Origin: an uncultured Gemmatimonadales bacterium | GTDB lineage: Bacteria > Gemmatimonadota > Gemmatimonadetes > Gemmatimonadales > JACORV01 | DNA length: 64,000 bases | Assembly (NCBI GenBank): GCA_963835535.1 | Contig: CAWIFL010000002.1 | Coordinates: 582,405 to 646,404 of the forward strand | Direction: 5' to 3' | Shown: positions 1,617 through 37,011 of the stretch, piece after piece | How positions within the stretch are numbered: position 1 is the first letter of the stretch | How the letters are laid out: every line of letters begins with the position of its first letter | Notes under the pieces: generated by a model | Told to the model about the DNA's origin: nothing | Database searches by the model: none | What the model saw: only the letters and a program-made list of their open reading frames with translations | Program-made: the position numbers and the translations under genes

Positions 1617-3203
1617 TCACTTGGCAAACTCCACCGCCCTCGTCTCCCGGATCACGACCACCCGGATCTGCCCGGGATACTGCAACTCGCCCTCGATCTT
1701 GCGCGCGATCTCCTCGGCCAGCGCGTTCGCGCGGTCATCGTCCACGACGTCCGGCGTCACCATGATGCGGATCTCGCGGCCGGCCTGGATCGCGAAGACC
1801 TTCTCGACGCCCTGGAAGCCCGACGCGATCTCCTCGAGCTTGGTGAGCCGCTTCACGTAGCTCTCGAACGCCTCGCGGCGCGCGCCGGGCCGGGAGCCCG
1901 AGACCGCGTCGGCGGCCTGCACGATCACCGAGATCGGCGTCTCGTGCGGCACGTCGTCGTGGTGCGCGGCGATGCAGTTGATCACCACCGGCGGCTCGCC
2001 GTACTTGGTCGCCACCTCGACGCCGAGCTGGACGTGCGTGCCCTCGCTCTCGTGCGTGAGCACCTTGCCGATGTCGTGGAGCAGCGCGCCGCGCTTCGCG
2101 AGCGCCACGTCGAGCTTCAGCTCGGCGGCCATGATCCCGGCCAGCCAGGCCACCTCCTTCGAGTGCTTCAGCATGTTCTGGCCGTACGAGGTCCGGAACC
2201 GCATCCGCCCGACCAGCTTGATCATCTCGGGGTGCAGGCCGTGGATGCCGACCTCGTACGCCGCCTGCTCGCCGGCCTCCTGGATCTGCTGGTCCACGTC
2301 GGCCTGGGCCTTCTTGACGACGTCCTCGATCCGCCCGGGATGGATGCGGCCGTCGCTGATCAGCCGTTCCAGGGCGAGGCGCGCCACCTCGCGGCGCACC
2401 GGATCGAAGCACGAGACGATCACGGTGTCGGGCGTGTCGTCGATGACCACGTCCACGCCGGTCGCGGTCTCGAACGCGCGGATGTTGCGGCCCTCGCGCC
2501 CGATGATCCGCCCCTTCATCTCGTCGTTGGGCAGGGTGACCGTCGCGACCGTGCTCTCGGCGGTGTGGTCGGCCGCGATGCGCTGGATGGCGAGGGCCAC
2601 GATCTTCTTCCCCTCGCGATCGGCGTCGCGCTTCGCCTGCTCCCGCAGGTTCCGCACGAGCGCGGCGGCCTCGGACCTGGCCTCCTCCTCGATCGAGCGG
2701 ACCAGCTCCTTCTTGGCGTCCGCCGCCGACAGCCCCGCGACCGCCTCGAGCCGGCGCTTCCGGTCGGCGATCAGCGTCTGCAGCTCCGCGTCCCGCGCCT
2801 GGACCCGCTGCTCGGACTTGCCCAGCTCTCCGATCCTCGTCTCGAGCTCCCTGTCCCGCCGGTCCAGGACCTGGAGCTTCTTCTCGAGCCCGTCCTCCCG
2901 CTCCTCGAGGCGCCGCTCGATGCGGTCGATCTCCTCGCGCCGGCGGCCGACTTCGACCTCCCACGCCTCGCGGGCCTTCGCCAGCTCTTCCTTGCCGGAG
3001 AGGAGCAACGTGTTGCGGAAGGCCTCGGCGTTGGTCCGGGCGTCCGCGAGTATGCGTTCGGCGAGCGCCTCGGCGGTCGCCTTTGCGCGCACCGCCCTGC
3101 GCCGCTCCACCCAAACGCCGATGAAGAAGAAAGCGAGCCCCGCCCCCGTCCCCGTCGCCCCGATGGCCACGAGGAGGGCCGCAAAGCTGAAAGCCGTCGT
3201 CAT
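1617..3203 (-). CDS. rny: ribonuclease Y
   Basis: 528-aa ORF with an N-terminal TM helix, a long coiled coil, a KH motif ([15 protein letters not shown]) and an HD domain (LLHDIGK ... AAHHDD). Confidence 0.95.
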
Positions 3204-19862: not shown

Positions 19863-21632
19863 TCAATGTCGTGGTTCCTGCTCCGCCTTCAGCGCCTTGC
19901 GCCGGAAGCGCATCGCGCCCCCGGAGATGAGCGCACGCTTCTCGTTCATCAGCTCGTCCTTCTCCGCCGCACCCGCCAGGCCGATCAGGCGGTCGATCTC
20001 CTCCAGGCGCTCGCGCTTCGGGCGATCCAGCACCCAGGCGATCGCCTGCACCAGGTCCACCTCGGGTTCGGGCCGTTCGTACGGCGCGGAGGCGAGCCGC
20101 TCCCACGTGTCGCGCTCGGCGCCCGCGTCCGGCGGGCCCGCGCCCGCGTAGAGCAGCTCCGCCAGGCGGCGGTAGACCGGATGCCGGAACTCGGTGGCCG
20201 GCAGCTCCGCCTTGACCCGGGCGACGTTCTCGGGCACCGCGAGCATCAGGTGGACCAGCGTGCGCTCGGTGGGGATCTCGGTGACCGGCCGCCCCGCGGG
20301 TTGCCGCTCGGGCTCGGGGCCGGCTCGCCCCCGTGCCCCCGTGCCCCCGTGCCCCCGTGCCTCCTGTCTTCCCACCTCCTGCTCCAGCACTTCCTTCCCC
20401 ACCCCGCTCCACTCGGCCGCGCGCGACATGTACAGCTCCCGCGTAATCGGGTCCTGCGCCGCGCGGATCGTGGGCAGCAGGCGGTCGAGCGCCTCGCGCC
20501 GGCCCTCGAGCGTGCCCGCCAGCCCCTTGCGGTCGAGCAGCTGGATCTTGCGCTCGAAGACGTCCACGGCCGCGTCGAGCAGGGCCTTGAACGCCTCCGC
20601 GCCGCCGCGCCGCACCAGGGTGTCGGGATCCTCTCCGGAGGGGAGCGTCACCAGGCTCACGCTCGCGCCCTGCCGGAGCAGCTCGTCGGCGTTGCGGAAC
20701 GAGGACTTCTGCCCCGGCGCGTCGGCGTCGTAGGCCAGCGCCACCTGCTTGGTGTAGCGCCGGAGGAGCCGCGCCTGCTCCGGCGTCAGCGAGGTGCCGA
20801 GCGGCGCGACCGCGTTCAGGATCCCCGCGGTCTGGAGCCGGATGGCGTCCACGTACCCTTCGACGAGGACGGCGAGCGACTCGGTGCGGATGGCGGTGCG
20901 GGCCCGGTCCAGGGCGTAGAGCAGCGTGCCCTTGTGGAAGACCGGCGTCTCGGGCGAGTTGAGGTACTTCGGCTCGCCCTCGCCGAGGAGGCGCCCGCCG
21001 AACCCGACCACGCGCCCGCGCACGTCGGCGATCGGGAAGATGAGGCGGCCGCGGAACCGCGGGACGACCGACTTGTCGTCCCGCTCCGTCACCAGGCCGG
21101 CCTTCCGCACCACGTCGTCCTCGACGCCGAGCCCCTTCAGCGCCTCGAGCAGCTCCTCGCCGCGCGCGGGCGCGAAGCCGAGCTGGTACTGGTCGCGCAC
21201 CGCCTCGTCCAGCTCGCGGCCGTCGAGGTAGTCGCGCGCCCCCTTCGCGTCGGGGGCCTCGCGGAGCCGCCGCGCGAACCAGTCGGCGGCCGTGCTCAGC
21301 GCGGAGTACAGCGGCTCGTTCGGGTCGGGCCCCGCGGTGCGCACGTCCGGCACGGCGATCCCCACCTTCGCCGCGATCTCGCGCACCGCCGTCGGATAGT
21401 CCAGCCCGAACCGCTTCATCAGGTAGGTGAAGACGTCGCCCGACTCGTGGCAGACGAAGCAGTGGTACATCTGCTTCCGCGGCACGACCGAGAAGTTGCG
21501 ATGCGTCCCGCCGTGGAACGGGCACGGCGCGCGCCAGTCGCTCCCCGTGCGCTTGAGCTCCACCGACTCGCCGATGATGGCGACGATGTCGGCCGCGTCG
21601 CGGATCTGCTCGATCAGCTCGGGAGCGATCAC
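19863..21632 (-). CDS. dnaG: DNA primase
   Basis: 589 aa with a zinc finger (CPFHGGTHRNFSVVPRKQMYHCFVCHESGD), a TOPRIM domain (LVEGYVDAI, AYDADAPG) and a C-terminal helicase-binding region. Confidence 0.94.
   Translation of the reverse strand: MIAPELIEQIRDAADIVAIIGESVELKRTGSDWRAPCPFHGGTHRNFSVVPRKQMYHCFVCHESGDVFTYLMKRFGLDYPTAVREIAAKVGIAVPDVRTAGPDPNEPLYSALSTAADWFARRLREAPDAKGARDYLDGRELDEAVRDQYQLGFAPARGEELLEALKGLGVEDDVVRKAGLVTERDDKSVVPRFRGRLIFPIADVRGRVVGFGGRLLGEGEPKYLNSPETPVFHKGTLLYALDRARTAIRTESLAVLVEGYVDAIRLQTAGILNAVAPLGTSLTPEQARLLRRYTKQVALAYDADAPGQKSSFRNADELLRQGASVSLVTLPSGEDPDTLVRRGGAEAFKALLDAAVDVFERKIQLLDRKGLAGTLEGRREALDRLLPTIRAAQDPITRELYMSRAAEWSGVGKEVLEQEVGRQEARGHGGTGARGRAGPEPERQPAGRPVTEIPTERTLVHLMLAVPENVARVKAELPATEFRHPVYRRLAELLYAGAGPPDAGAERDTWERLASAPYERPEPEVDLVQAIAWVLDRPKRERLEEIDRLIGLAGAAEKDELMNEKRALISGGAMRFRRKALKAEQEPRH
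20328..20359 (-). repeat. octamer microsatellite (CCCCCGTG)x4 inside dnaG; sense strand (CACGGGGG)x4
   Basis: Four perfect 8-nt units read directly. Translated as ARGHGGTGARG in the primase linker. Confidence 0.9.
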
Positions 21633-24332: not shown

Positions 24333-24377
24333 GTAGCCCGCCAACCTCCAAGAGGGTGTATCCAGCGCAACCTTGAA

Positions 24378-24406
24378 AATTTACGCGGGTCAGTGTGGCC
24401 GGACAA
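24378..24406 (-). promoter_or_regulatory. candidate sigma70-type promoter of rpsU
   Basis: Minus strand reads TTGTCC, a 17-nt spacer, then TAAATT. This AT-rich patch lies about 45 nt upstream of the rpsU ATG, directly after the hinT hairpin. Confidence 0.45.
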
Positions 24407-24410
24407 GTAC

Positions 24411-24437
24411 GAGGGGTTAGGGGTCCCCTGACCCCTC
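24411..24437 (-). terminator. GGGG-heptamer hairpin after hinT (short member of the NTAGGGG repeat family)
   Basis: GAGGGGTTAGGGG-T-CCCCTGACCCCTC has 13-nt arms that are complementary except for one G.U position. It starts 7 nt after the hinT stop and has no U-tract. Confidence 0.5.
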
Positions 24438-24443
24438 TCCTTC

Positions 24444-24782
24444 TCATCCCGGAGGCCAGTGCATCGCCCGGCCGCCGAGCACGTGGACGTGGATGTGCGG
24501 CACGGTCTGCCCCGCCTCGGCCTTGGTGTTGAGGACCACCCGGTAGCCGCGGGCGGCCACCTTCTGCTGGCGGGCCACTTCCCGCGCCGCCACGAGCAGC
24601 TCGCCGAGGAGCGCCACGTCCTCGGCCTCGTTCAGGGACTCCACGTGCAGCGTCGGGATCACGAGCACGTGCACCGGCGCCTGCGGATTGATGTCCTTGA
24701 TGGCGATCACCGTGGGGGTCCTGTAGACGACGTCGGCCTTGACCTCGCCCTTGATGATCTTGCAGAACAGGCAGTCGTTCAC
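24444..24782 (-). CDS. hinT: HIT-family (histidine triad) nucleotide hydrolase
   Basis: 112 aa: CLFCKII, HIHVHVLGG. Confidence 0.9.
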   Translation of the reverse strand: MNDCLFCKIIKGEVKADVVYRTPTVIAIKDINPQAPVHVLVIPTLHVESLNEAEDVALLGELLVAAREVARQQKVAARGYRVVLNTKAEAGQTVPHIHVHVLGGRAMHWPPG

Positions 24783-27751: not shown

Positions 27752-28924
27752 TTAGATACTGGCGACCAACTCGTCTAGGCGCAGCCAGCCCTGGGGGGTA
27801 AGACGCGCACGGGGGCACGGAGGCACGGAGGCCCGGGCGCCGCCGGAATCGGACGCACCGACGCACCGACGCACGGACGCACGGGCAGGTATTGGCTCCA
27901 CTTCCAGAACGGCCCAGCCGGCAGCTACCCAGCGCTCCAGCGTCTCGAGGAGCTTGGCCGGACAGGGATCCGGCAGCGCGATCCCGCGCCGCGTCCTCAG
28001 GCCGAGGTACAGCTGCTCCAGCCGGCGCTGGTGGTGGTTCAGGATCTCGTGCCCGGCCATCGGCGTCCTCCCCTGCTCCAGCTTCTCCTGCCACCGCACG
28101 TACGTCGGCTCGTTCCACCACCGGCTCACGCCGTCGAAGCTGTGGGCCGCGGGGCCCAGGCCGAGGTACGGCTCCAGCTGCCAGTAAGCGCGGTTGTGCA
28201 CCGCCTCCCGGCCCGCGCGCGCCGCATTCGACACTTCGTAGAACACGTACCCGGCGGCGCCGAGACATTCGTGCGCCAGCAGGTACTCCTCCTCGTAGCG
28301 CTCGTCCTCCGCGGGCGCGACGTCGCCGCGGTCCACCTGGCGGAACAGCGGCGTCCCGTGCTCGACCGTGAGCCCGTAGAGCGAGACGTGATCCGGCTCC
28401 AGCGCGATCGCCGCCTCGAGGTCGCGCCGCCAGTCGCGCCGCAGATCGGGAGGGAGCGCGAAGATCAGGTCGAGCGAGAGGTTGCCGATCCCGGCGGCGC
28501 GCGCCGTGCGCACCGCCGCGCCGATCCGGGCCGCGTCGTGGGTCCGGTGCATCCAGGCCAGCACGCGGTCGTCGAACGACTGCGCGCCGAGCGAGATGCG
28601 GTTCACGCCGGCCGTGGCCCAGGCCCGCACGCTCTCCGGGGTGACGTCCTCGGGGTTCGCCTCGAGCGTGAACTCGGCGAGGGCGGGCTCGAAGGTGAGC
28701 AGTCGCGCCAGCGCCGCGATCCCGTCGCCGCCCAGCCGCGAGGGCGTCCCGCCGCCCAGGTACAGGGTCTCGACCGCCCGCGCGCCCGTCAGCGCGACCT
28801 CGCGCCCGAGCGCGGCCAGGTACGCGGCGACCGGCACGGTGCGCCGCACCGCGATGCTGAAGTCACAGTAGGTGCAGCGCCGCCCGCAGAACGGCACGTG
28901 CACGTACAGATGGCGCGTCGTCAC
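27752..28924 (-). CDS. hemW: radical SAM heme chaperone HemW (HemN-like, oxygen-independent coproporphyrinogen oxidase family)
   Basis: GTG 28924 (VTTRHLYVHVPFCGRRCTYCDF...) carries the CxxxCxxC radical SAM motif. GTGA overlap with the dprA stop. The C-terminus carries a repeat-encoded insertion. Confidence 0.9.
   Translation of the reverse strand: MTTRHLYVHVPFCGRRCTYCDFSIAVRRTVPVAAYLAALGREVALTGARAVETLYLGGGTPSRLGGDGIAALARLLTFEPALAEFTLEANPEDVTPESVRAWATAGVNRISLGAQSFDDRVLAWMHRTHDAARIGAAVRTARAAGIGNLSLDLIFALPPDLRRDWRRDLEAAIALEPDHVSLYGLTVEHGTPLFRQVDRGDVAPAEDERYEEEYLLAHECLGAAGYVFYEVSNAARAGREAVHNRAYWQLEPYLGLGPAAHSFDGVSRWWNEPTYVRWQEKLEQGRTPMAGHEILNHHQRRLEQLYLGLRTRRGIALPDPCPAKLLETLERWVAAGWAVLEVEPIPARASVRRCVGASDSGGARASVPPCPRARLTPQGWLRLDELVASI
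27803..27887. repeat. 8-nt periodic GCACGG-type repeat array inside the 3' end of hemW
   Basis: Plus strand reads GCGCACGG GGGCACGG AGGCACGG AGGCCCGG ... ACGCACCG ACGCACCG ACGCACGG ACGCACGG. It shares GCACGGAGGCAC with 33617-33628 and GGCACGGGGGCAC with the dnaG array. Confidence 0.8.
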
Positions 28925-29904
28925 GACGCGGTGGTACTCGTCGCGCGGCGGGACCCAGCGGGCGGCGCATCGGAAGTGTCGTTCGCAGGTCGGTCCCCGT
29001 CCGGCGCCAAGACGAACTGCTTGCCCGGGAGCTGGACCGCGAGTCCCTTGAGCTCCAGCGACGAGAGCGCCGCCAGCAGGGTGCCGGCATCGAGCGCCGT
29101 GCGCTCCGCGATCTCGTCCACGTGCACCGGCTGGGCCGCCAGCAGGTCGAACACCTTCGCTTCCGCGTCGAGCAGGTCCGGCTCGGCGGCGAAGGCCAGC
29201 TCCACCTGTGCCGCCAGCTCGCGCCGCTCCCGCGCCTCGATCGCGTCGCCTTGGATCCCGTACGCGTCGAACAGGTCCTCGGGGCCGCGGTACACCGTCG
29301 CCCCTTCGCTGATGAGCTTGTTGGGGCTCTCCGCCGTCGCCTCGTCGATCCGGCCGGGCACGGCCAGAACGTGTTTGCCCAGGTTCAGCATCCAGCGCGC
29401 GGTGTTGCTCGTGCCCCCCGCGACCTTCCCTTCCACGACCAGCAGGTACTCCACCAGCCCCGCGATGATCCGGTTGCGGCGGGGGAAATGCTCCGGCCAC
29501 GGGCGGGTGCCCGGCTCCATCTCGCTCAACAGGAGCCCCTTCCCGCGCACTTCGTCGTAGAGATCGCGGTTGCTCAGCGGGTAGCAGACGTCCACGCCGC
29601 CGCCCAGGACGGCGATGGTCCTCCCGCCGGCGTCGAGCGCGCCGCGGTGCGCGCGGGCGTCGAGGCCGCGGGCGAGTCCGCTCACGACCACGAGCGCGGC
29701 CCGCGCCGCCGCCTTCGCGGCGTCGTAGGTGACACGGATGCCGTACGATGAAGGGTGGCGGCTCCCGACGATGCCGACGCGCCGTCCCTCGAGCATCCCG
29801 AGGTCGCCGAGGGCGTAGAGGCGCTCCGGTGGCTTCTCGACCAGCAGGACCGACTTGGGGAAGCACGGGTGGTCCCGCTCGAGGACCTGGATCTCCCCGT
29901 TCAC
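28921..29904 (-). CDS. dprA: DNA-processing protein DprA
   Basis: GTG 29904 (VNGEIQVLERDHPCFP...). Rossmann-like DprA core (GIVGSRHPSSYG, VVSGLARGLDARAH, FPRRNRIIAGL) and a C-terminal winged-helix-like region. GTGA overlap with the obg stop. Confidence 0.88.
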   Translation of the reverse strand: MNGEIQVLERDHPCFPKSVLLVEKPPERLYALGDLGMLEGRRVGIVGSRHPSSYGIRVTYDAAKAAARAALVVVSGLARGLDARAHRGALDAGGRTIAVLGGGVDVCYPLSNRDLYDEVRGKGLLLSEMEPGTRPWPEHFPRRNRIIAGLVEYLLVVEGKVAGGTSNTARWMLNLGKHVLAVPGRIDEATAESPNKLISEGATVYRGPEDLFDAYGIQGDAIEARERRELAAQVELAFAAEPDLLDAEAKVFDLLAAQPVHVDEIAERTALDAGTLLAALSSLELKGLAVQLPGKQFVLAPDGDRPANDTSDAPPAGSRRATSTTAS

Positions 29905-30905
29905 GAAGGCGCCTCGGCCTCCCGCCGCACCTCGGCCAGCCGCTGCCAGAGCGAGCCGAGGAAGTGCTCGAGCCCCTGGCGCGACAAGGACGAGATGACG
30001 AACAGAGGCACGTCGCCGGGCAGCGCGAGCGTGTCCGCCGGGGAGACCGCCCGCACCAGGTCGGCCTTCGTGATGGCGATGACGTGCGGCTTCGCGGCCA
30101 GGGCCGGAGAGAACGCTTCCACCTCGCGCCGCAACACCGCGTAGGCTTCGGCGAAGGGCTGAGCGTCCACAGGAAGCATGTACACCAGCAGACGCGTGCG
30201 CTCGATGTGGCGGAGGAACTTGAGGCCCAGCCCCTTGCCGTGGTGCGCTCCCTCGATGATCCCCGGGATGTCGGCGATCACGAAGCTGCGGTGGTCGCTC
30301 AGCTGTACGACGCCGAGGTTGGGCTCGAGCGTCGTGAACGGATAATCCGCGATCTTCGGCCGCGCGGCGGTCACGGCCGCCAGGAGCGTGCTCTTGCCGG
30401 CGTTCGGCTGGCCGAGCAGGCCGACGTCGGCGATGAGCTTCAGCGTCAGCTCGATCTTCCTCCGCTCGCCGTCCTCGCCCGGCTGGTACTCGTGCGGCGT
30501 CTGATGGGTCGGCGTCGCGAAGTGCTGGTTGCCGTAGCCACCCCTGCCCCCCTGCGCGACGAGCATGCGCTCGCCCGGGCGCACGACCTCGCCCAGCATC
30601 TCGCCGGTCGCCGCGTCGCGCACCTCCGTCCCGCACGGCACCGGCAGCACGAGGTCCTCGGCCGAGCGCCCCGACTGCTGCGAGGGACCGCCCGGCTGGC
30701 CCGAGTCGGCCTCCCATTTCGGTCTGTAGGTGTAGTCGAGCAGGGTCCAGAGCTGCGGATCGGCGCGCAGGTACACGCTCCCACCGCGCCCGCCGTCCCC
30801 GCCGGAGGGACCGCCCTTGGGGACGCGACTCTCCCGCCGGAACGCGGTCATTCCGGAGCCGCCGTTCCCGGCGGTCACGTCGACGAGGACCTGGTCGATG
30901 AACAT
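29901..30905 (-). CDS. obgE: GTPase Obg
   Basis: 334 aa with a glycine-rich Obg fold (GGDGGRGG), G1 GQPNAGKST and DIPGIIEGA. Confidence 0.95.
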   Translation of the reverse strand: MFIDQVLVDVTAGNGGSGMTAFRRESRVPKGGPSGGDGGRGGSVYLRADPQLWTLLDYTYRPKWEADSGQPGGPSQQSGRSAEDLVLPVPCGTEVRDAATGEMLGEVVRPGERMLVAQGGRGGYGNQHFATPTHQTPHEYQPGEDGERRKIELTLKLIADVGLLGQPNAGKSTLLAAVTAARPKIADYPFTTLEPNLGVVQLSDHRSFVIADIPGIIEGAHHGKGLGLKFLRHIERTRLLVYMLPVDAQPFAEAYAVLRREVEAFSPALAAKPHVIAITKADLVRAVSPADTLALPGDVPLFVISSLSRQGLEHFLGSLWQRLAEVRREAEAPS

Positions 30906-31589: not shown

Positions 31590-32636
31590 TCATCGGGCGC
31601 GCTCCAGGGAAACGCGGGCCTCCAGGTGGCCCACTTCCTCGCCCAAGGTGTTCTTGATCCGCGGCGAACGGAAGGAGTCCGCCACGCGCACGGCGCCGGG
31701 CGCCAGGATCTCCAGGAAGGCGAGCAGGGCCGGCCGCGCGGCATCCATGTCGCCGTCCTCCACCTTCATCGCCAGGCCGAGGCGCGCGCCCGGAAGCGCC
31801 GCGCAGTAGACGCCGTCGGCGCCGACCTTGGTGATGACCGCGCCGCGGGAGGAAGCGATGACTTCGGTGCAGAGGCGGCCGGTGCCGGCGATCAGGAATG
31901 GCTCTGCAGTCACGGCGCGGATGACACGGAGGGCCGCGCGGGAGGGGTTAGGGGCTAGGGAGTAAGGATTAGGGCCCGCCGCGCCGACTTCCCTAACCCC
32001 TAACCCCTCACCCCTAGCCCCTAGTCGTGCATACGCCAGCGCCATGTTGCGCAGAGGCAGCGCGTAGGAGACCACGCCGCACCCATCCGTGCCCTGCCCG
32101 ATCTTGTCTTCGGCCACGCCCGTCCACGCCGCCACTTCCTCGAGCAGGCGCCGCTGGACCGGATGCTCCGCCTTCCGGTAGTTCGCCGTCGGCCAGCCGT
32201 GATGGCGCGCGAGCGCGAGCATCGCGGCGTGCTTCCCCGAGCAGTTGCTGTGGAGCTTGCGCGGCTTCTCACCGCGGCCGGCCATCTCGCGCGCGATGGT
32301 GGGCGAGAGCGACGGATGGGGGCCGCATTCCAGGTCCTGCTCCGCGCAGCCGGCTTTCTCGAGCAGGCTCTGGGCGACGGCGAGGTGGCGCGGCTCCCCG
32401 TTGTGCGAGGCGCAGGCGAGCGCGATCTCGGCGTCCGTAATGCCGAGCGCGTCGGCGCCGCCCTCCTCGATCAGTGGCAGGACCTGGATCAGCTTGGCGC
32501 ACGAGCGCCAGTACGTCACCAGATCGCTGTCGCCCGTCGCGCTCACGAGCCTTCCGTCCGCATCCACGACGGCGGCGGAAACCCGATGGCGCGACTCGAC
32601 AATGTGGCCGCGGATGGCGTCTACGGTGGATGTCAC
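31590..32636 (-). CDS. asparaginase II family protein (PF06089-like) carrying an in-frame repeat insertion
   Basis: 348 aa: RSCAKLIQVLP, ASHNGEPRH, SNCSGKHAAML, GTDGCGV, TKVGADGVY, LAMKVEDG. Confidence 0.85.
   Translation of the reverse strand: MTSTVDAIRGHIVESRHRVSAAVVDADGRLVSATGDSDLVTYWRSCAKLIQVLPLIEEGGADALGITDAEIALACASHNGEPRHLAVAQSLLEKAGCAEQDLECGPHPSLSPTIAREMAGRGEKPRKLHSNCSGKHAAMLALARHHGWPTANYRKAEHPVQRRLLEEVAAWTGVAEDKIGQGTDGCGVVSYALPLRNMALAYARLGARGEGLGVREVGAAGPNPYSLAPNPSRAALRVIRAVTAEPFLIAGTGRLCTEVIASSRGAVITKVGADGVYCAALPGARLGLAMKVEDGDMDAARPALLAFLEILAPGAVRVADSFRSPRIKNTLGEEVGHLEARVSLERAR
31941..32024. repeat. 84-nt heptamer dyad element (NTAGGGG-type units, 16-nt spacer, inverted units) inside the asparaginase CDS
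   Basis: Left arm 31941-31974 is GGAGGGGTTAGGGGCTAGGGAGTAAGGATTAGGG. Right arm 31991-32024 is CCCTAACCCCTAACCCCTCACCCCTAGCCCCTAG. By hand, 24 of 34 positions are complementary. Confidence 0.9.
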
Positions 32637-32685: not shown

Positions 32686-33600
32686 TCACGCCGACGGCGA
32701 ACTGTGGGCCGGCGCGGAGTCTCCGCCGGCGCCTGCCAGGGCCAGGGCGATGCCTCCCAGGGCCAGGACGCCCCCCGTGACAGCCCCGAGGCCGGGCGGT
32801 TCGGCGATGGCCGGCAGGAGCCAGGCGAGAAGCGTGGCGCCCACCGGCTCGCCCAGGGCGGCCACGTTGACCGTGTAGGCCGGGAGGTAGCGCAGGGCGT
32901 AGTTGAGGCCGCCGTGGCCCACGAGCATCGGGCCCGCGGCCAGGGCGGCGAAGATGAGCCAGTCCTTCGCCGGGTAGGCCACGAACGCCTGGTGGAGGCC
33001 CGCTGCCCAGACGAGCAGAACGGCCGCCGCGACGCCGTAGACTGGGGTGATGTAGGCGACGAGTCCGAGGTCGGCGCGGAGCCGGCGGCCGATGACGAAG
33101 TACGCGCCTCCGAAGGCTGCTCCGGCCAGGGCGAGCAGGTCCCCGATCAGAGCGCCGCGGCCCGCGCGGCTGGCGTCGCCCAGGGCGATGACGGCGGCGC
33201 CGACGATGGCGAGGACGATCCCGAACGCCTGGCGGCGGGCGGGGCGCTCGCCGAGGAAGATGCGGGAGAAGACCCAGGCGAAGACGGGTGAGAGCGAGAC
33301 CAGGACGGCGGAGGCTGCGACACTGGTGAGGCGCAGCGACGTGATCCAGGAAGCGAAGTGGAGTGCGAGTGCCACGCCCGCGACGGCGGCGATGCGTCGC
33401 TCGGGGCCGCCGAGCCTCGCCCACTCACGGCGCGCCGGGGAAACCGCGAGCGCGGGAGCGAGGAGGAGGGTCGCGAAGGTGAGCCGCCAGGCGGCGATGG
33501 CCAGGGGCGGCGCGGCGCTGAGCCGGATGAGGGGCGCGGCCCACGACATCGCCACGACCGCGATGGCCATCACGAGGAGCGGATGTGGCCGCTTCGGCAC
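32686..33600 (-). CDS. EamA/DMT-family transporter
   Basis: C-terminal about 304 aa of ORF 32686..35202, with about 10 predicted TM helices and duplicated EamA-like halves. The start is GTG 33600 (VPKRPHPLLVMAIAVV) or the ATG 10 codons downstream. Confidence 0.8.
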   Translation of the reverse strand: MPKRPHPLLVMAIAVVAMSWAAPLIRLSAAPPLAIAAWRLTFATLLLAPALAVSPARREWARLGGPERRIAAVAGVALALHFASWITSLRLTSVAASAVLVSLSPVFAWVFSRIFLGERPARRQAFGIVLAIVGAAVIALGDASRAGRGALIGDLLALAGAAFGGAYFVIGRRLRADLGLVAYITPVYGVAAAVLLVWAAGLHQAFVAYPAKDWLIFAALAAGPMLVGHGGLNYALRYLPAYTVNVAALGEPVGATLLAWLLPAIAEPPGLGAVTGGVLALGGIALALAGAGGDSAPAHSSPSA

Positions 33601-33612
33601 GGGGCCAATATA

Positions 33613-33659
33613 GGACGCACGGAGGCACAGGCGCACGGGCGGACGGGCCGGACGCCCGG
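33613..33659. repeat. GCACGG-type octamer array in the divergent eamA/wzi intergenic region
   Basis: GGACGCACGGAGGCACAGGCGCACGGGCGGACGGGCCGGACGCCCGG, bracketed by AATATA (33607-33612) and TATATT (33660-33665). Confidence 0.75.
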
Positions 33660-33672
33660 TATATTCGGCGAC

Positions 33673-35214
33673 ATGCGACGATGCCTCCTGGCGGCGCTCC
33701 TGTCTCTTACGGCTGCCGCCCCGCTTGCGGCGCAGGCGCCGGAGAGCAACCTCTACCTTCCGATCACCTCCTGGGCGACGCCCTATGTGGAGCAGCTGAT
33801 CCGCGCCGGCGTGCTCCGGGGGCTCGACCCGCTCACGCGGCCCCTGAGACGCGCGGACGTGGCGCGGGCCGTGGCCAGGGCGGACACGACGCGCCTGGCG
33901 GAGTCGGTGAAAAGCAGCCTGCGGCTGCTGGCCTGGGAGCTGTCTGAGCGTCCGGACACGGTGCGATGGAAGATCGACGGCGGCGTGGGACTCACGGCCG
34001 CATCCGATGCCAGCCGGTGGCCCGACCGGCCATCGCGCGACTCCACGGGCCTCTACCCGCGCGGTGACCTGGAGATGTCGCTGGAGGTACCGCACGCGGC
34101 CTTCGTGACGCATCCGTACTTCGACAACCGGCTCAAGTACGACCCCGAGTACATCGGGCGAAAGGACCAGCCCATCGCGGGGCGAACGGACGAGGCGTAC
34201 GGCATCGCTTCGTGGAAGTACTTTGCGGTGTTCTTCGGCATGGTCGACCGGAACTGGGGGCCGCCCGAGACGCAGGGGCTGATCCTCTCCAACGCTCCAT
34301 ACTCCTACGACCACTTGTTTCTGCGACTCGGCCCCCAGCGCTTCAGACTGGAGATGGTCGCAACCCAGCTCAACAGCCTTCCCGGCTGGGGGCAGACTGT
34401 TCCACAGCACCGTTTCCTCTCGGCGCACCGCCTGGTGGTGATTCCGTCCGACCGGTTCGCGTTCTCGCTTTCGGAGGCCGAGCTGTACGCCGACACCGCC
34501 AGCCTCGGGCGGTCGTTCGAGCCGTGGTACCTCAATCCGCTCGGTCTGTGGACGTTGGTCCAATACCAGAACAGGCCGGTCGGGAACGCGCTGATCGGCG
34601 CGGACGCGTCGTATCAGATCTCGCGCGCGGTCCGCCTGGCTGCGCAGATCTACGCCGACGACATCCAGACGAGTCGAAACAACCAGCACGACAAGAAGCC
34701 GGAGGAGCTCGGCTACACCTTCTCCGCCACCGGCGGCGCCCTGCGGGGCCGATGGAGCTGGTCGGCGCTGTACACGCGGGTCGACGCACTCGACTACCGG
34801 ACCGAGGTCAACCAGGAGCAGTACTCGAGCGACAGCGTGGGCCTGGCCCGGAACCACAGCGACTACGACCAGTGGACTTTCCGCGCCACCACGGCACCCG
34901 CTCCGCGGGCACTCGTAGCCGGCGAGATCACCTACATCAGGCAGGGGCAGGGCGACTTCCGAAAGCCGTATCCTCCCGACTCGGCGTTTTCCGATTCGCT
35001 CGTTTTCCTCACGGGGGTGGTGGAACGGACGCTGCGTCTCGCCGTGCAGGCGAATTGGACGCCGGTGCCAGGGATCAACCTGAGCACCGACATCGGCCGC
35101 CACTTCATCTGGAACGCGAACCACGTGCAGGGCGTGCGTGGCGACCGCTGGGTGTGGCGAATCAAGGCCGAGATCCGGCACCGGATCAGCGGCGGGATCC
35201 ACTGGGGGGACTGA
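33673..35214 (+). CDS. wzi: capsule assembly Wzi-family outer-membrane protein
   Basis: ATG 33673 begins a signal peptide (MRRCLLAALLSLTAAAPLAAQA). N-terminal helical motif (PYVEQLIRAGVLRGLDPLTRPLRRADVARAV), then an aromatic-rich beta-barrel-like sequence. Confidence 0.68.
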   Translation: MRRCLLAALLSLTAAAPLAAQAPESNLYLPITSWATPYVEQLIRAGVLRGLDPLTRPLRRADVARAVARADTTRLAESVKSSLRLLAWELSERPDTVRWKIDGGVGLTAASDASRWPDRPSRDSTGLYPRGDLEMSLEVPHAAFVTHPYFDNRLKYDPEYIGRKDQPIAGRTDEAYGIASWKYFAVFFGMVDRNWGPPETQGLILSNAPYSYDHLFLRLGPQRFRLEMVATQLNSLPGWGQTVPQHRFLSAHRLVVIPSDRFAFSLSEAELYADTASLGRSFEPWYLNPLGLWTLVQYQNRPVGNALIGADASYQISRAVRLAAQIYADDIQTSRNNQHDKKPEELGYTFSATGGALRGRWSWSALYTRVDALDYRTEVNQEQYSSDSVGLARNHSDYDQWTFRATTAPAPRALVAGEITYIRQGQGDFRKPYPPDSAFSDSLVFLTGVVERTLRLAVQANWTPVPGINLSTDIGRHFIWNANHVQGVRGDRWVWRIKAEIRHRISGGIHWGD

Positions 35215-35900: not shown

Positions 35901-37011
35901 CGTCGTCGTCATCGGCGCCGGGGTCGTGGGCCTGGCGTGCGCCCGCGAGCTGGCGGTGCGTGGACGCGACGTCATCCTGATCGAGCGGCACGAGCGCTTC
36001 GGCGTCGAGACGAGCAGCCGCAACAGCGAAGTCATCCACGCCGGCATCTACTATCCGGTCGGCAGCCTCAAGGCGCGGCTCTGTGCGCGCGGCAATCGGA
36101 GTCTCTACGCCTGGTGCGCGGCGCACGGAGTCCCGCACGCGCGGCTCGGGAAGCTGATCGTCGCGACCGCGGAGGACGAGGAGCCGAAGCTCGATCAGAT
36201 CCTCCGGCAGGCGGTCGAGAACGGCGTCACCTCACTTCAGCGGTTCGCCCCGGCTCAGGTCCGCAGGATCGAGCCCCACGTCCGTGCGACGCACGCCCTC
36301 TGGTCCCCCGACACGGGGATCGTGGACTCGCACCAGCTGATGGCGAGCCTCGAAGCGGACGCACGGGCGCACGGCTGCACGGAAGCACTGCGCCACGAGG
36401 TGGTTGCGGCCGAGCCCGTCGCCGGGGGTTATCGCCTCGCCGTCCGGAGCGGCGACGAGACCACGTCGCTGGAAACAAGCTCCGTCGTAAATTCGGCGGG
36501 ACTCGACGCGGACCGGGTCGCCGCGCTGCCCGGTCTCGACGTGGCGGCCGCCGGCTATCGCCTGCACTATGCGCGTGGGCACTACTTCCGCGTGCATCCG
36601 CGGAAGCGCCAGCTCGCGAGCCATCTCATCTACCCCGCCCCGCACGCGACGCACCTGGGCATCCACGTCACGCTCGACCTGGCTGGCGGCGTGCGGCTGG
36701 GGCCGGACCTCCAGTACCTGAAGGACCGCACGCAGGACTACGCGGTGGCCGAGAGCCTGCGGCCCGCCTTTCACGCTGCGGTCTCGCGCTACCTGGAGGG
36801 GCTGGACGAGGCCGACCTGTCGCCCGACCTGGCCGGCATTCGCCCCAAGTTGCAGGGCCCCGGTGAGCCGGTCCGCGATTTCGTGATCCAGGAGGAGTCG
36901 GCGCGGGGCCTGCCGGGGTGGGTCAACCTTGTGGGTATCGAGTCGCCGGGGCTAACCTGTTGCCTCGAGATCGGCCGTCTGGTCGCCGACACCCTGGGGG
37001 CCGTCAGGTGA
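35887..37011 (+). CDS. FAD-dependent oxidoreductase (DAO family, LhgO-like); start codon non-canonical or unresolved
   Basis: Translation DVVVIGAGVVGLACARELAVRGRDVILIER (the FAD-binding beta-alpha-beta motif) begins at 35899, upstream of the first canonical start (GTG 35926). C-terminal GIESPGLT. Confidence 0.82.
   Translation: MADADVVVIGAGVVGLACARELAVRGRDVILIERHERFGVETSSRNSEVIHAGIYYPVGSLKARLCARGNRSLYAWCAAHGVPHARLGKLIVATAEDEEPKLDQILRQAVENGVTSLQRFAPAQVRRIEPHVRATHALWSPDTGIVDSHQLMASLEADARAHGCTEALRHEVVAAEPVAGGYRLAVRSGDETTSLETSSVVNSAGLDADRVAALPGLDVAAAGYRLHYARGHYFRVHPRKRQLASHLIYPAPHATHLGIHVTLDLAGGVRLGPDLQYLKDRTQDYAVAESLRPAFHAAVSRYLEGLDEADLSPDLAGIRPKLQGPGEPVRDFVIQEESARGLPGWVNLVGIESPGLTCCLEIGRLVADTLGAVR

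Follow-up and report, generated by a model that had tools for sequence, protein, structure and literature searches.

The 64-kb stretch of DNA analysed here (hereafter the window) belongs to a soil Gemmatimonadales bacterium whose closest genomes are Gemmatimonadales metagenome-assembled genomes. The element under study is an octamer repeat array inside its gene for DNA primase, dnaG. The gene, the predicted linker of its product and the array lie as follows.

19863..21632, minus strand: dnaG (DNA primase), 589 amino acids (aa), assigned by Pfam, solved primase structures and synteny
20274..20354, minus strand: predicted disordered inter-domain linker of DnaG, residues 427-453 (AlphaFold2)
20325..20364, minus strand: extended array, five units in the NNNNGCAC register, namely GGAGGCAC, three copies of GGGGGCAC, and GGGGGCGA
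20327..20361, minus strand: perfect octamer microsatellite (Tandem Repeats Finder: period 8, 4.4 copies, 100% matches, no indels)

The open reading frame (ORF) 19863..21632 is a bona fide dnaG encoding a housekeeping primase. Its product begins with a CHC2 zinc ribbon at residues 4-96 (Zn_ribbon_DnaG, PF01807, 2.9e-27), which also matched the structure 1d0q (7.1e-26), and continues into the catalytic core (DNAG_N, PF08275, 1.9e-36; Toprim_2, PF13155, 2e-18), which matched the solved primases 2au3 (4.8e-77) and 1dd9 (3.1e-63) in a profile search. A DnaB_bind domain (PF10410, 3.1e-08) was detected at residues 374-414, before the linker, with 34.2 bits. The part after the linker scored 22.5 bits against DnaG_DnaB_bind (PF08278), below the cut-off of 29.1, and was modelled by AlphaFold2 as a confident helical bundle at about residues 451-570 (block predicted local distance difference test, pLDDT, of 82-92). 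The identity of the C-terminal domain rests on its position and fold. The gene neighbourhood rpsU-yqeY-mutS2-dnaG-...-recJ is conserved in relatives.

In bacterial DnaG proteins, such as the primases of Escherichia coli and Bacillus, a flexible linker joins the RNA-polymerase domain to the C-terminal domain that binds the helicase. The original prediction, which was made from the letters of the window, had placed the array between the catalytic and C-terminal domains. The AlphaFold2 model, built on 37 homologues, bears this out, with pLDDT below 50 for residues 427-449, coil for residues 428-453, and confidently modelled helices on either side (residues 413-427 and 454 onward). The location of the array in a disordered linker ahead of the C-terminal domain is therefore well supported by the model. 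In the alignment of the 37 homologues, the linker was by far the least conserved stretch of DnaG. It resembles the linker of the E. coli and Bacillus primases in its place in the domain order, predicted disorder and variable length (26-48 aa across the DnaG family), but differs from it in being built from a DNA microsatellite and in apparently passing from strain to strain as a short cassette.

On the sense (minus) strand, the raw sequence reads (CACGGGGG)x4 at 20359-20328, and imperfect units flank this tract on both sides (GGAGGCAC at 20364-20357 and GGGGGCGA at 20332-20325). The string G5-CAC-G5-CAC-G5-CAC-G5 is found at 20356-20328. The first base of the array is nucleotide 1274 of the gene (second position of codon 425), and the encoded peptide is A425-G435 (ARGHGGTGARG), while the extended array codes for roughly E424-R436 (EARGHGGTGARGR). 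The four perfect octamers with their imperfect continuation, the encoded peptide and the G-rich string had all been reported in the original prediction, and the raw sequence and Tandem Repeats Finder confirmed this description. The longest perfect period-8 self-match in the window was 27 bases, compared with a mean of 9.1 and a maximum of 15 in 200 dinucleotide-preserving shuffles, and it was also the longest run for any period from 4 to 12. Chance is no explanation for the array.

Since three units of 8 nt make 24 nt, the array reads as a super-repeat of eight residues with the consensus A-R/Q-x-H-G/R-x-T-x. We simulated changes of unit number in the gene. The gain of one unit and the loss of two truncated the protein to 464 and 456 aa, respectively, and the loss of one and the gain of two extended it to 693 and 701 aa with an out-of-frame tail. 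The C-terminal domain was destroyed in all these cases, whereas it was kept in frame by the loss or gain of three units (581 and 597 aa). The claim that gain or loss of a single unit would shift the frame of dnaG was thus borne out. The alternative-frame products in these simulations were mere out-of-frame read-through. Programmed frameshifting was also considered, and no canonical slippery heptamer was seen by eye in the ~20 nt upstream of the G-tract.

The dnaG DNA of nine relatives, with 72-97% identical DnaG, was compared with that of the window. In each of the nine, a NNNNGCAC octamer array occupies the corresponding site with an unchanged codon register (...GAG GCA CGG...), and the variable bases of the units differ (GGAC, GGAG and AGAG). 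Representative arrays are given below with the labels of the relatives and their DnaG identity.

L081/L169 (97%): GGACGCAC GGAGGCAC AGAGGCAC AGAGGCAC GGACGCAA
L161 and L162 (95%): GGAGGCGC GGGGGCAC GGGGGCGC GGAAGCAC GGGGGCGC in L161; L162 is two bases off L161
L082/L167 (92%): (GGAGGCAC GGACGCAC)x2 GGGCGCAC
L164 (90%): AGACGCAC (GGACGCAC)x3
L165/L168 (72%): nine units, mostly GGGGGCAC

In relatives at 71% DnaG identity or less, the GCAC-period-8 pattern was not found, and their linkers were similar in length. Therefore, the array is an old feature of one lineage, of which the perfect four-unit state in the window is a local variant. The doubt attached to the original prediction was that the segment might be an ordinary Gly/Arg linker, invariant and present in the same form in distant relatives. 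It is instead the most variable part of the gene, although the array, in degenerate form, is indeed shared down to about 72% identity.

The reading frame is preserved across these relatives. The clade of the window has two super-units (e.g. ARGHGGTG ARGRAGPE or ARTHGGTD ARAHGGRE) and the clade of protein P0029 has three (ARGHGGTG AQTQGGTG ARGHGGEE or AQTHGRTE AQAHRRTD AQVHGSDE), so that the two clades are three octamers apart. The arrays have about five to six or nine units, which fits one step of 24 nt (three units, 8 aa). The frame is intact in each of the nine dnaG genes compared as DNA. Among 120 listed proteins, about 75 yielded a linker peptide, and every one of these except P0107 read through. 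In the group of 88-97% identity, all octamer-type linkers are 33-34 aa long and the number of units is constant. In the P0002 cluster, which represents a neighbouring species found in many samples, 11 protein variants share one identical linker. P0107, encoded at 801-2546 of L170 (81% identity), is the sole out-of-frame linker found, and its C-terminal domain is intact in another frame. Its frame is shifted by the loss of 2 nt compared with P0053 (GGGGGTG[TG]GAGG), in a lineage without the octamer array. L170 is a single metagenome contig of 3.3 kb, and P0107 may be a real pseudogene, a variant or an assembly error.

The linker and the rest of the gene differ greatly in tempo. Outside the linker, 3 of 559 amino acids, 1.5-1.6% of nucleotides and 3.9% of third codon positions differ between the window and its sister L169, whereas 11 of 30 amino acids and 34% of nucleotides differ inside it. 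Across a linker patch of ~90 nt, the divergence of the two is 35-38%. Over 21 kb of aligned neighbourhood, the median was 2 differences per 100 nt, compared with 27 at the linker. The disordered linker together with the array forms a hypervariable patch of ~90 nt (about 20285-20365). Three haplotypes were recognised in the linker tail, namely A (the window, L161, L162 and L163), B (L169, L164 and L166) and C (L167), which differ from one another by 36-51%. The arrays fall into other types, which unite the window with L161 and L162, L167 with L164 and L163, and L169 with L166. Neither grouping follows the flank distances of 1.5-16%, in which the window and L169 are 1.5% apart and L163 is 12% from everything, and L163 combines an L167-like array with a window-like tail, indicating that array and tail have been re-assorted. 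This contradiction between linker haplotypes and flank relationships points to short-patch recombination and homogenisation of units. The simplest reading of the alignments would be homologous recombination of ~90-nt patches between diverged alleles, with breakpoints in or beside the repeats.

Within tail haplotype A, the variable quartets of the units are GGAC, GGAG, GGAC and GGCG in L163, GGGG, GGGG, GGAA and GGGG in L161, and four times GGGG in the window. From an L163-like allele to the window allele, six changes are needed in four units, all of them towards GGGG, suggesting that slippage or conversion homogenised the units and gave rise to the perfect state. We also considered a general hypermutability of octamer arrays. 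This was rejected because two other arrays of the same family in the window, at 33613 and 36356 (see below), each differ by only one base from the sister species.

The dnaG array is one of several of its kind. The pattern GCACN4GCACN4GCAC has eight matches in the window, against 0.08 expected, at four loci (dnaG, 27807-27882, 33617-33636 and 36361-36388), two or three of which are coding. The original prediction had named recurrences at 27803-27887 and 33613-33659; both were found again, together with the unlisted site at 36361-36388. The three further members are described below.

27803..27887, plus strand: bipartite octamer array whose plus strand is G-rich, within the C-terminal coding part of a hemW-like radical SAM gene on the minus strand (stop 27752)
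33613..33659, plus strand: octamer array in the spacer of two divergent genes, a minus-strand EamA transporter gene and a plus-strand gene for a Wzi-like signal-peptide protein
36356..36388, plus strand: weaker four-unit GCAC-period-8 stretch inside a flavin adenine dinucleotide (FAD)-dependent oxidoreductase gene (35926..37011), product ADARAHGCTEA

In the C-terminus of the hemW-like gene (27752-27900), the array is read antisense as ...ASVRRCVGASDSGGARASVPPCPRA... and forms an in-frame insert right before the conserved RLTPQGWLRLDELV end of the protein. Orthologous arrays of varying length and sequence occur in L167 (2820-2976), L168 (3500-3626) and L169 (3690-3828). That of L168 is 13 aa longer, and half of that of L167 is inverted, giving it a G-rich and a C-rich arm. 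With 12-18 differences per 100 nt between the window and L169, the hemW array is intermediate in divergence. The single base by which each of the other two arrays differs is a substitution relative to locus L171 of the sister species. The stretch at 36356..36388 may belong to the family or resemble it by chance. By eye, no clear pattern of unit flavours that would indicate concerted evolution between the dnaG and hemW arrays was seen in four genomes. The unit is thus read in the sense direction in dnaG and antisense in hemW, and is untranslated at 33613, which shows that it is a DNA-level phenomenon and not a selected peptide. A Chi-like or other dispersed single-site function was examined and rejected, as lone octamers outside the arrays (GGGGGCAC, GGACGCAC, GGAGGCAC and others) were not clearly enriched over a third-order Markov expectation and showed no strand bias.

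Some gene models (P0137 and cluster members P0268-P0270) start the Wzi-like protein 30 codons early, within 33585-33675, and thereby read the 33613 array as MWPLRHGANIGRTEAQAHGRTGRTPGIFGD; in one database gene model, the N-terminal extension is GRTEAQAHGRTGRT. Other models begin the protein with its signal peptide, MRRCLL, and the longer start is probably a mis-call.

The sense strand of the window allele has a strong predicted potential to form a G-quadruplex (G4), with tandem units that supply four G5 tracts separated by CAC. With ViennaRNA, the 51-nt core folded at -54.7 kcal/mol when G4 was allowed and at -8.6 kcal/mol without it, a gap of 46 kcal/mol, and a 101-nt context at -72.2 and -34.1 kcal/mol, respectively. 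The G4Hunter score of 2.25-2.32 places the site among the three strongest in the window. However, canonical G4 motifs are not enriched in the window, of which the GC content is 72% (8 observed against 9.4 +/- 3.1 in shuffles), and the capacity is not retained at the orthologous dnaG sites, a test of function that we added in this analysis. The sister L169 scores only 0.64 and has no G4 in its minimum-energy fold. L166 (0.92), L163 (1.00) and the other close relatives (0.9-2.0) have no multi-layer G4 in theirs, and L165 (72% identity) is the only comparably G-rich relative (2.12). Within the unit, GCAC is the conserved half and the G-run is the variable half. Therefore, a conserved G4 function of the array seems unlikely from this comparison, although a lineage-specific G4 effect on DnaG expression is conceivable on the predicted folds. 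The textbook G4 motif proposed at the outset thus stands as a strong prediction, while its standing as a selected or meaningful feature is weakened by the low score of the sister and the lack of motif enrichment. At Rfam gathering thresholds, two tRNAs were found in the window and nothing at dnaG, and a literature search on Gemmatimonadetes octamer repeats and on dnaG G-quadruplexes returned nothing specific. The orientation of replication was also examined. GC skew is mostly negative on the plus strand from 1 to 32 kb, which suggests that dnaG is co-oriented with replication and that the G-rich strand is the lagging-strand template, but this signal is too weak to use and is confounded by gene orientation.

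These results are probably best explained by a real but ordinary in-frame coding microsatellite, old, recombining and self-homogenising, which forms part of a tolerant, disordered DnaG linker and whose frame is kept by purifying selection. The NNNNGCAC array, in its GGGGGCAC form here, would make up the first part of a disordered spacer that tethers the C-terminal domain to the catalytic body, and it would be tolerated because the linker sequence is almost unconstrained. Such an array may change by three routes: point substitution at the four variable bases of the unit, homogenisation among the units of an array through slippage or conversion, which would have led to the perfect state in the window, and short-patch homologous recombination, which would exchange ~90 nt of linker between diverged alleles. 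For the last, the conserved EVGR and EIPTER flanks, and probably the repeats as well, may serve as anchors. Changes of unit number that break the frame would be purged by purifying selection on the essential C-terminal domain, while those that restore it, such as three-unit steps, could persist. The G4 potential of the window allele would be a by-product of homogenisation to the G5 unit.

In-frame tandem repeats in indel-tolerant coding regions are the best fit among known systems. Indels are tolerated mainly in loops and disordered regions (Lin & Kussell 2012, PMC3315296), and the dnaG array shares with such intragenic simple sequence repeats (SSRs) the slippage-prone DNA, the location in an indel-tolerant segment and the restriction of length changes among relatives to those that keep the frame, here seen as two or three super-units of 24 nt. 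It differs from them in its unit of 8 nt, for which the frame-neutral step is three units (24 nt), in its position in the middle of the gene rather than near a terminus, and in its persistence across ~28% protein divergence.

Several points weigh against this explanation. All six changes towards GGGG are A/C to G, and could equally reflect selection for G-runs or GC-biased conversion. Their direction was read from a comparison of few alleles rather than from a formal phylogenetic or recombination analysis. P0001, the cluster of the protein with the perfect array, consists of one member, and an exact-sequence look-up for the contig encoding it found no other contig. Moreover, neutrality alone does not account for the recurrence of the same unit at unlinked loci or for the persistence of the GCAC-period-8 pattern over ~28% protein divergence. 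Both could stem from a function at the level of DNA or RNA, or from a process specific to this sequence.

Four readings compete with an in-frame microsatellite in a tolerant linker, apart from an activity of the octamer family itself. The original prediction had pointed out that such arrays are normally counter-selected, or serve phase variation in contingency genes. If this array were a contingency locus, octamer slippage would toggle the frame of dnaG or yield a primase truncated before its C-terminal domain. A non-triplet unit and a perfect tract inside the ORF (codons 425-435), of which changes by one or two units give truncated or out-of-frame products, would suit such a switch, as would the linker frameshift carried by the L170 contig. 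In its non-triplet unit inside an ORF, the array resembles the hepta- and octanucleotide SSRs of Haemophilus influenzae (Power et al. 2009, PMC2651432), which lie in or upstream of surface, adhesin or uptake genes and differ in copy number from strain to strain. However, those slippage switches have 8 to 19 or more units, compared with 4.4 at dnaG, and dnaG is not a dispensable environment-facing gene but a single gene for the housekeeping primase, which lies among replication and repair genes in a conserved order. Copy-number polymorphism that shifts the frame was found neither in the nine relatives nor in the linkers of the other hits or the P0002 cluster, and unit number is fixed among close relatives. 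The L170 frameshift is a 2-nt deletion and comes from a lineage without the array. Phase variation of dnaG is therefore not supported, and we regard it as very improbable. Still less credible is an artefact of assembly or polishing, by which the perfect array would have been created or trimmed. The source is a metagenome-assembled contig, but typical reads and assembly k-mers are longer than the array (35 nt), the ORF is unbroken and of full length, and homologous arrays occur at this site in independent assemblies of relatives, two of which (L161 and L162) carry a near-identical allele.

A functional G4 in the mRNA or the non-template strand, which might pause DnaG synthesis between domains or affect transcription or replication, has more in its favour. 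The predicted structure is strong, with five-layer G-runs and 3-nt loops, all inferred changes in the window allele are towards G, and a second clade (L165) also has G4/G5-rich units. Four units are the minimum for a G4, and a preference for four units has been reported for the G4-forming heptamer SSRs GGGNATC and GGGGA(C/T)T of Xanthomonas and Nostoc, which are present in many copies per genome and biased to non-coding regions (Rehm et al. 2015, PMC4692102). The arrays of the window resemble this class in their G-rich tandem units of 6-9 nt, occurrence at several loci and four-unit state, and its inverted tandem layout is seen in the heptamer arrays at 1450-1615 and 31931-32027. They differ from it in the octamer unit, in the coding location of two or three of four loci, and in a variable G-run, so that G4 capacity is not conserved. 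The loss of this potential in a sister at 1.5% flank divergence, the mere GG runs of most close relatives, the lack of motif enrichment and the orientation of the other family arrays either way relative to transcription make a functional G4 unlikely. Selection at the protein level is a slightly poorer candidate. It would favour an RGG-like repeat, A-R-x-H-G-G-T-x, for a linker role such as nucleic-acid contact or primase-helicase tethering, with the DNA period being secondary, and the 8-aa period in many relatives (e.g. ARTHGGTD ARAHGGRE, AQTHGRTD ARTHGGAE and the three units of the P0029 clade) is consistent with it. However, the same DNA unit gives SVPPCPRA-type peptides in hemW and no peptide at 33613, unrelated linkers (ARGPGSGVRGPGTAAS and ARGLGVGGSGVG) occur within the same group of 88-95% identity, and the linker, for which disorder is predicted, shows the least conservation within DnaG. 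On the boldest view, NNNNGCAC arrays might be lineage-specific DNA-level elements with an activity of their own, for instance as favoured sites of crossover or conversion, or as a motif that is structured or bound by protein. They would have spread into loops and linkers of housekeeping genes (dnaG and hemW) and into intergenic DNA, and would drive a cassette-like diversification of these protein segments, while the G5 allele would provide dnaG with a genuine G4 in its RNA or DNA. We consider this doubtful, to about the same degree as a functional G4.

Neither a switch nor a paradox has to be assumed when an essential gene contains a perfect repeat of non-triplet units. In the dnaG linker, where sequence would hardly matter and selection would police only the reading frame, the locus offers a natural example of an 8-nt unit that evolves as a super-repeat of 24 nt and eight residues, and of recombination patches of ~90 nt that appear to set the history of one protein segment against that of the rest of its gene. 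The G4 potential comes and goes between sister genomes, which calls for caution in inferring function from such motifs in a genome of 72% GC. If the octamer family did have an activity of its own, it would be a repeat element of a new kind, located in coding regions, in a phylum that has received little study.

Other repeats and differences were noted elsewhere in the window. Downstream of dnaG (19855), L169 has GAGAGTT repeats without a counterpart in the window. In the spacer at 24333-24480, L169 has ~56 extra bases of TAGGGTG/CACCCTA heptamers, of which only a GGGGTCAGGGG...ACCCCTAACCC remnant is found in the window. The window carries a 78-nt insertion relative to L169 at the dprA/hemW junction (28913-28990), and strong divergence with indels from L169 was seen at 29967-30251, close to where the gene that lies upstream of dprA has its 3′ end (by synteny, this gene encodes an Obg-like GTPase). 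The intergenic region at 31931-32027 has GGGGTTA/GGGGCTA units facing CCCTAAC/CCCCTAG, with canonical G4 motifs on both strands and a hairpin z-score of -2.9. At the same site, the sister species (L171) has a different unit, GTAGGGT/CACCCTA, and 24-43 differences per 100 nt compared with a background of 3. A strong G4 motif (GGGGCGACGGGGACGGGGGCGGGG) lies on the minus strand at 3138-3161, apparently inside an ORF near its start, where it overlaps a CCCCGT x3.2 hexamer repeat and has a G4Hunter score of -2.56 on the plus strand. Finally, the intergenic region at 1450-1615 contains facing heptamer arrays, GTGAGAN followed by NTCTCAC, which fold into one hairpin of -113.6 kcal/mol (shuffle mean -60.3, z = -12.1) and look like a terminator-like or REP-like element made of short tandem repeats.

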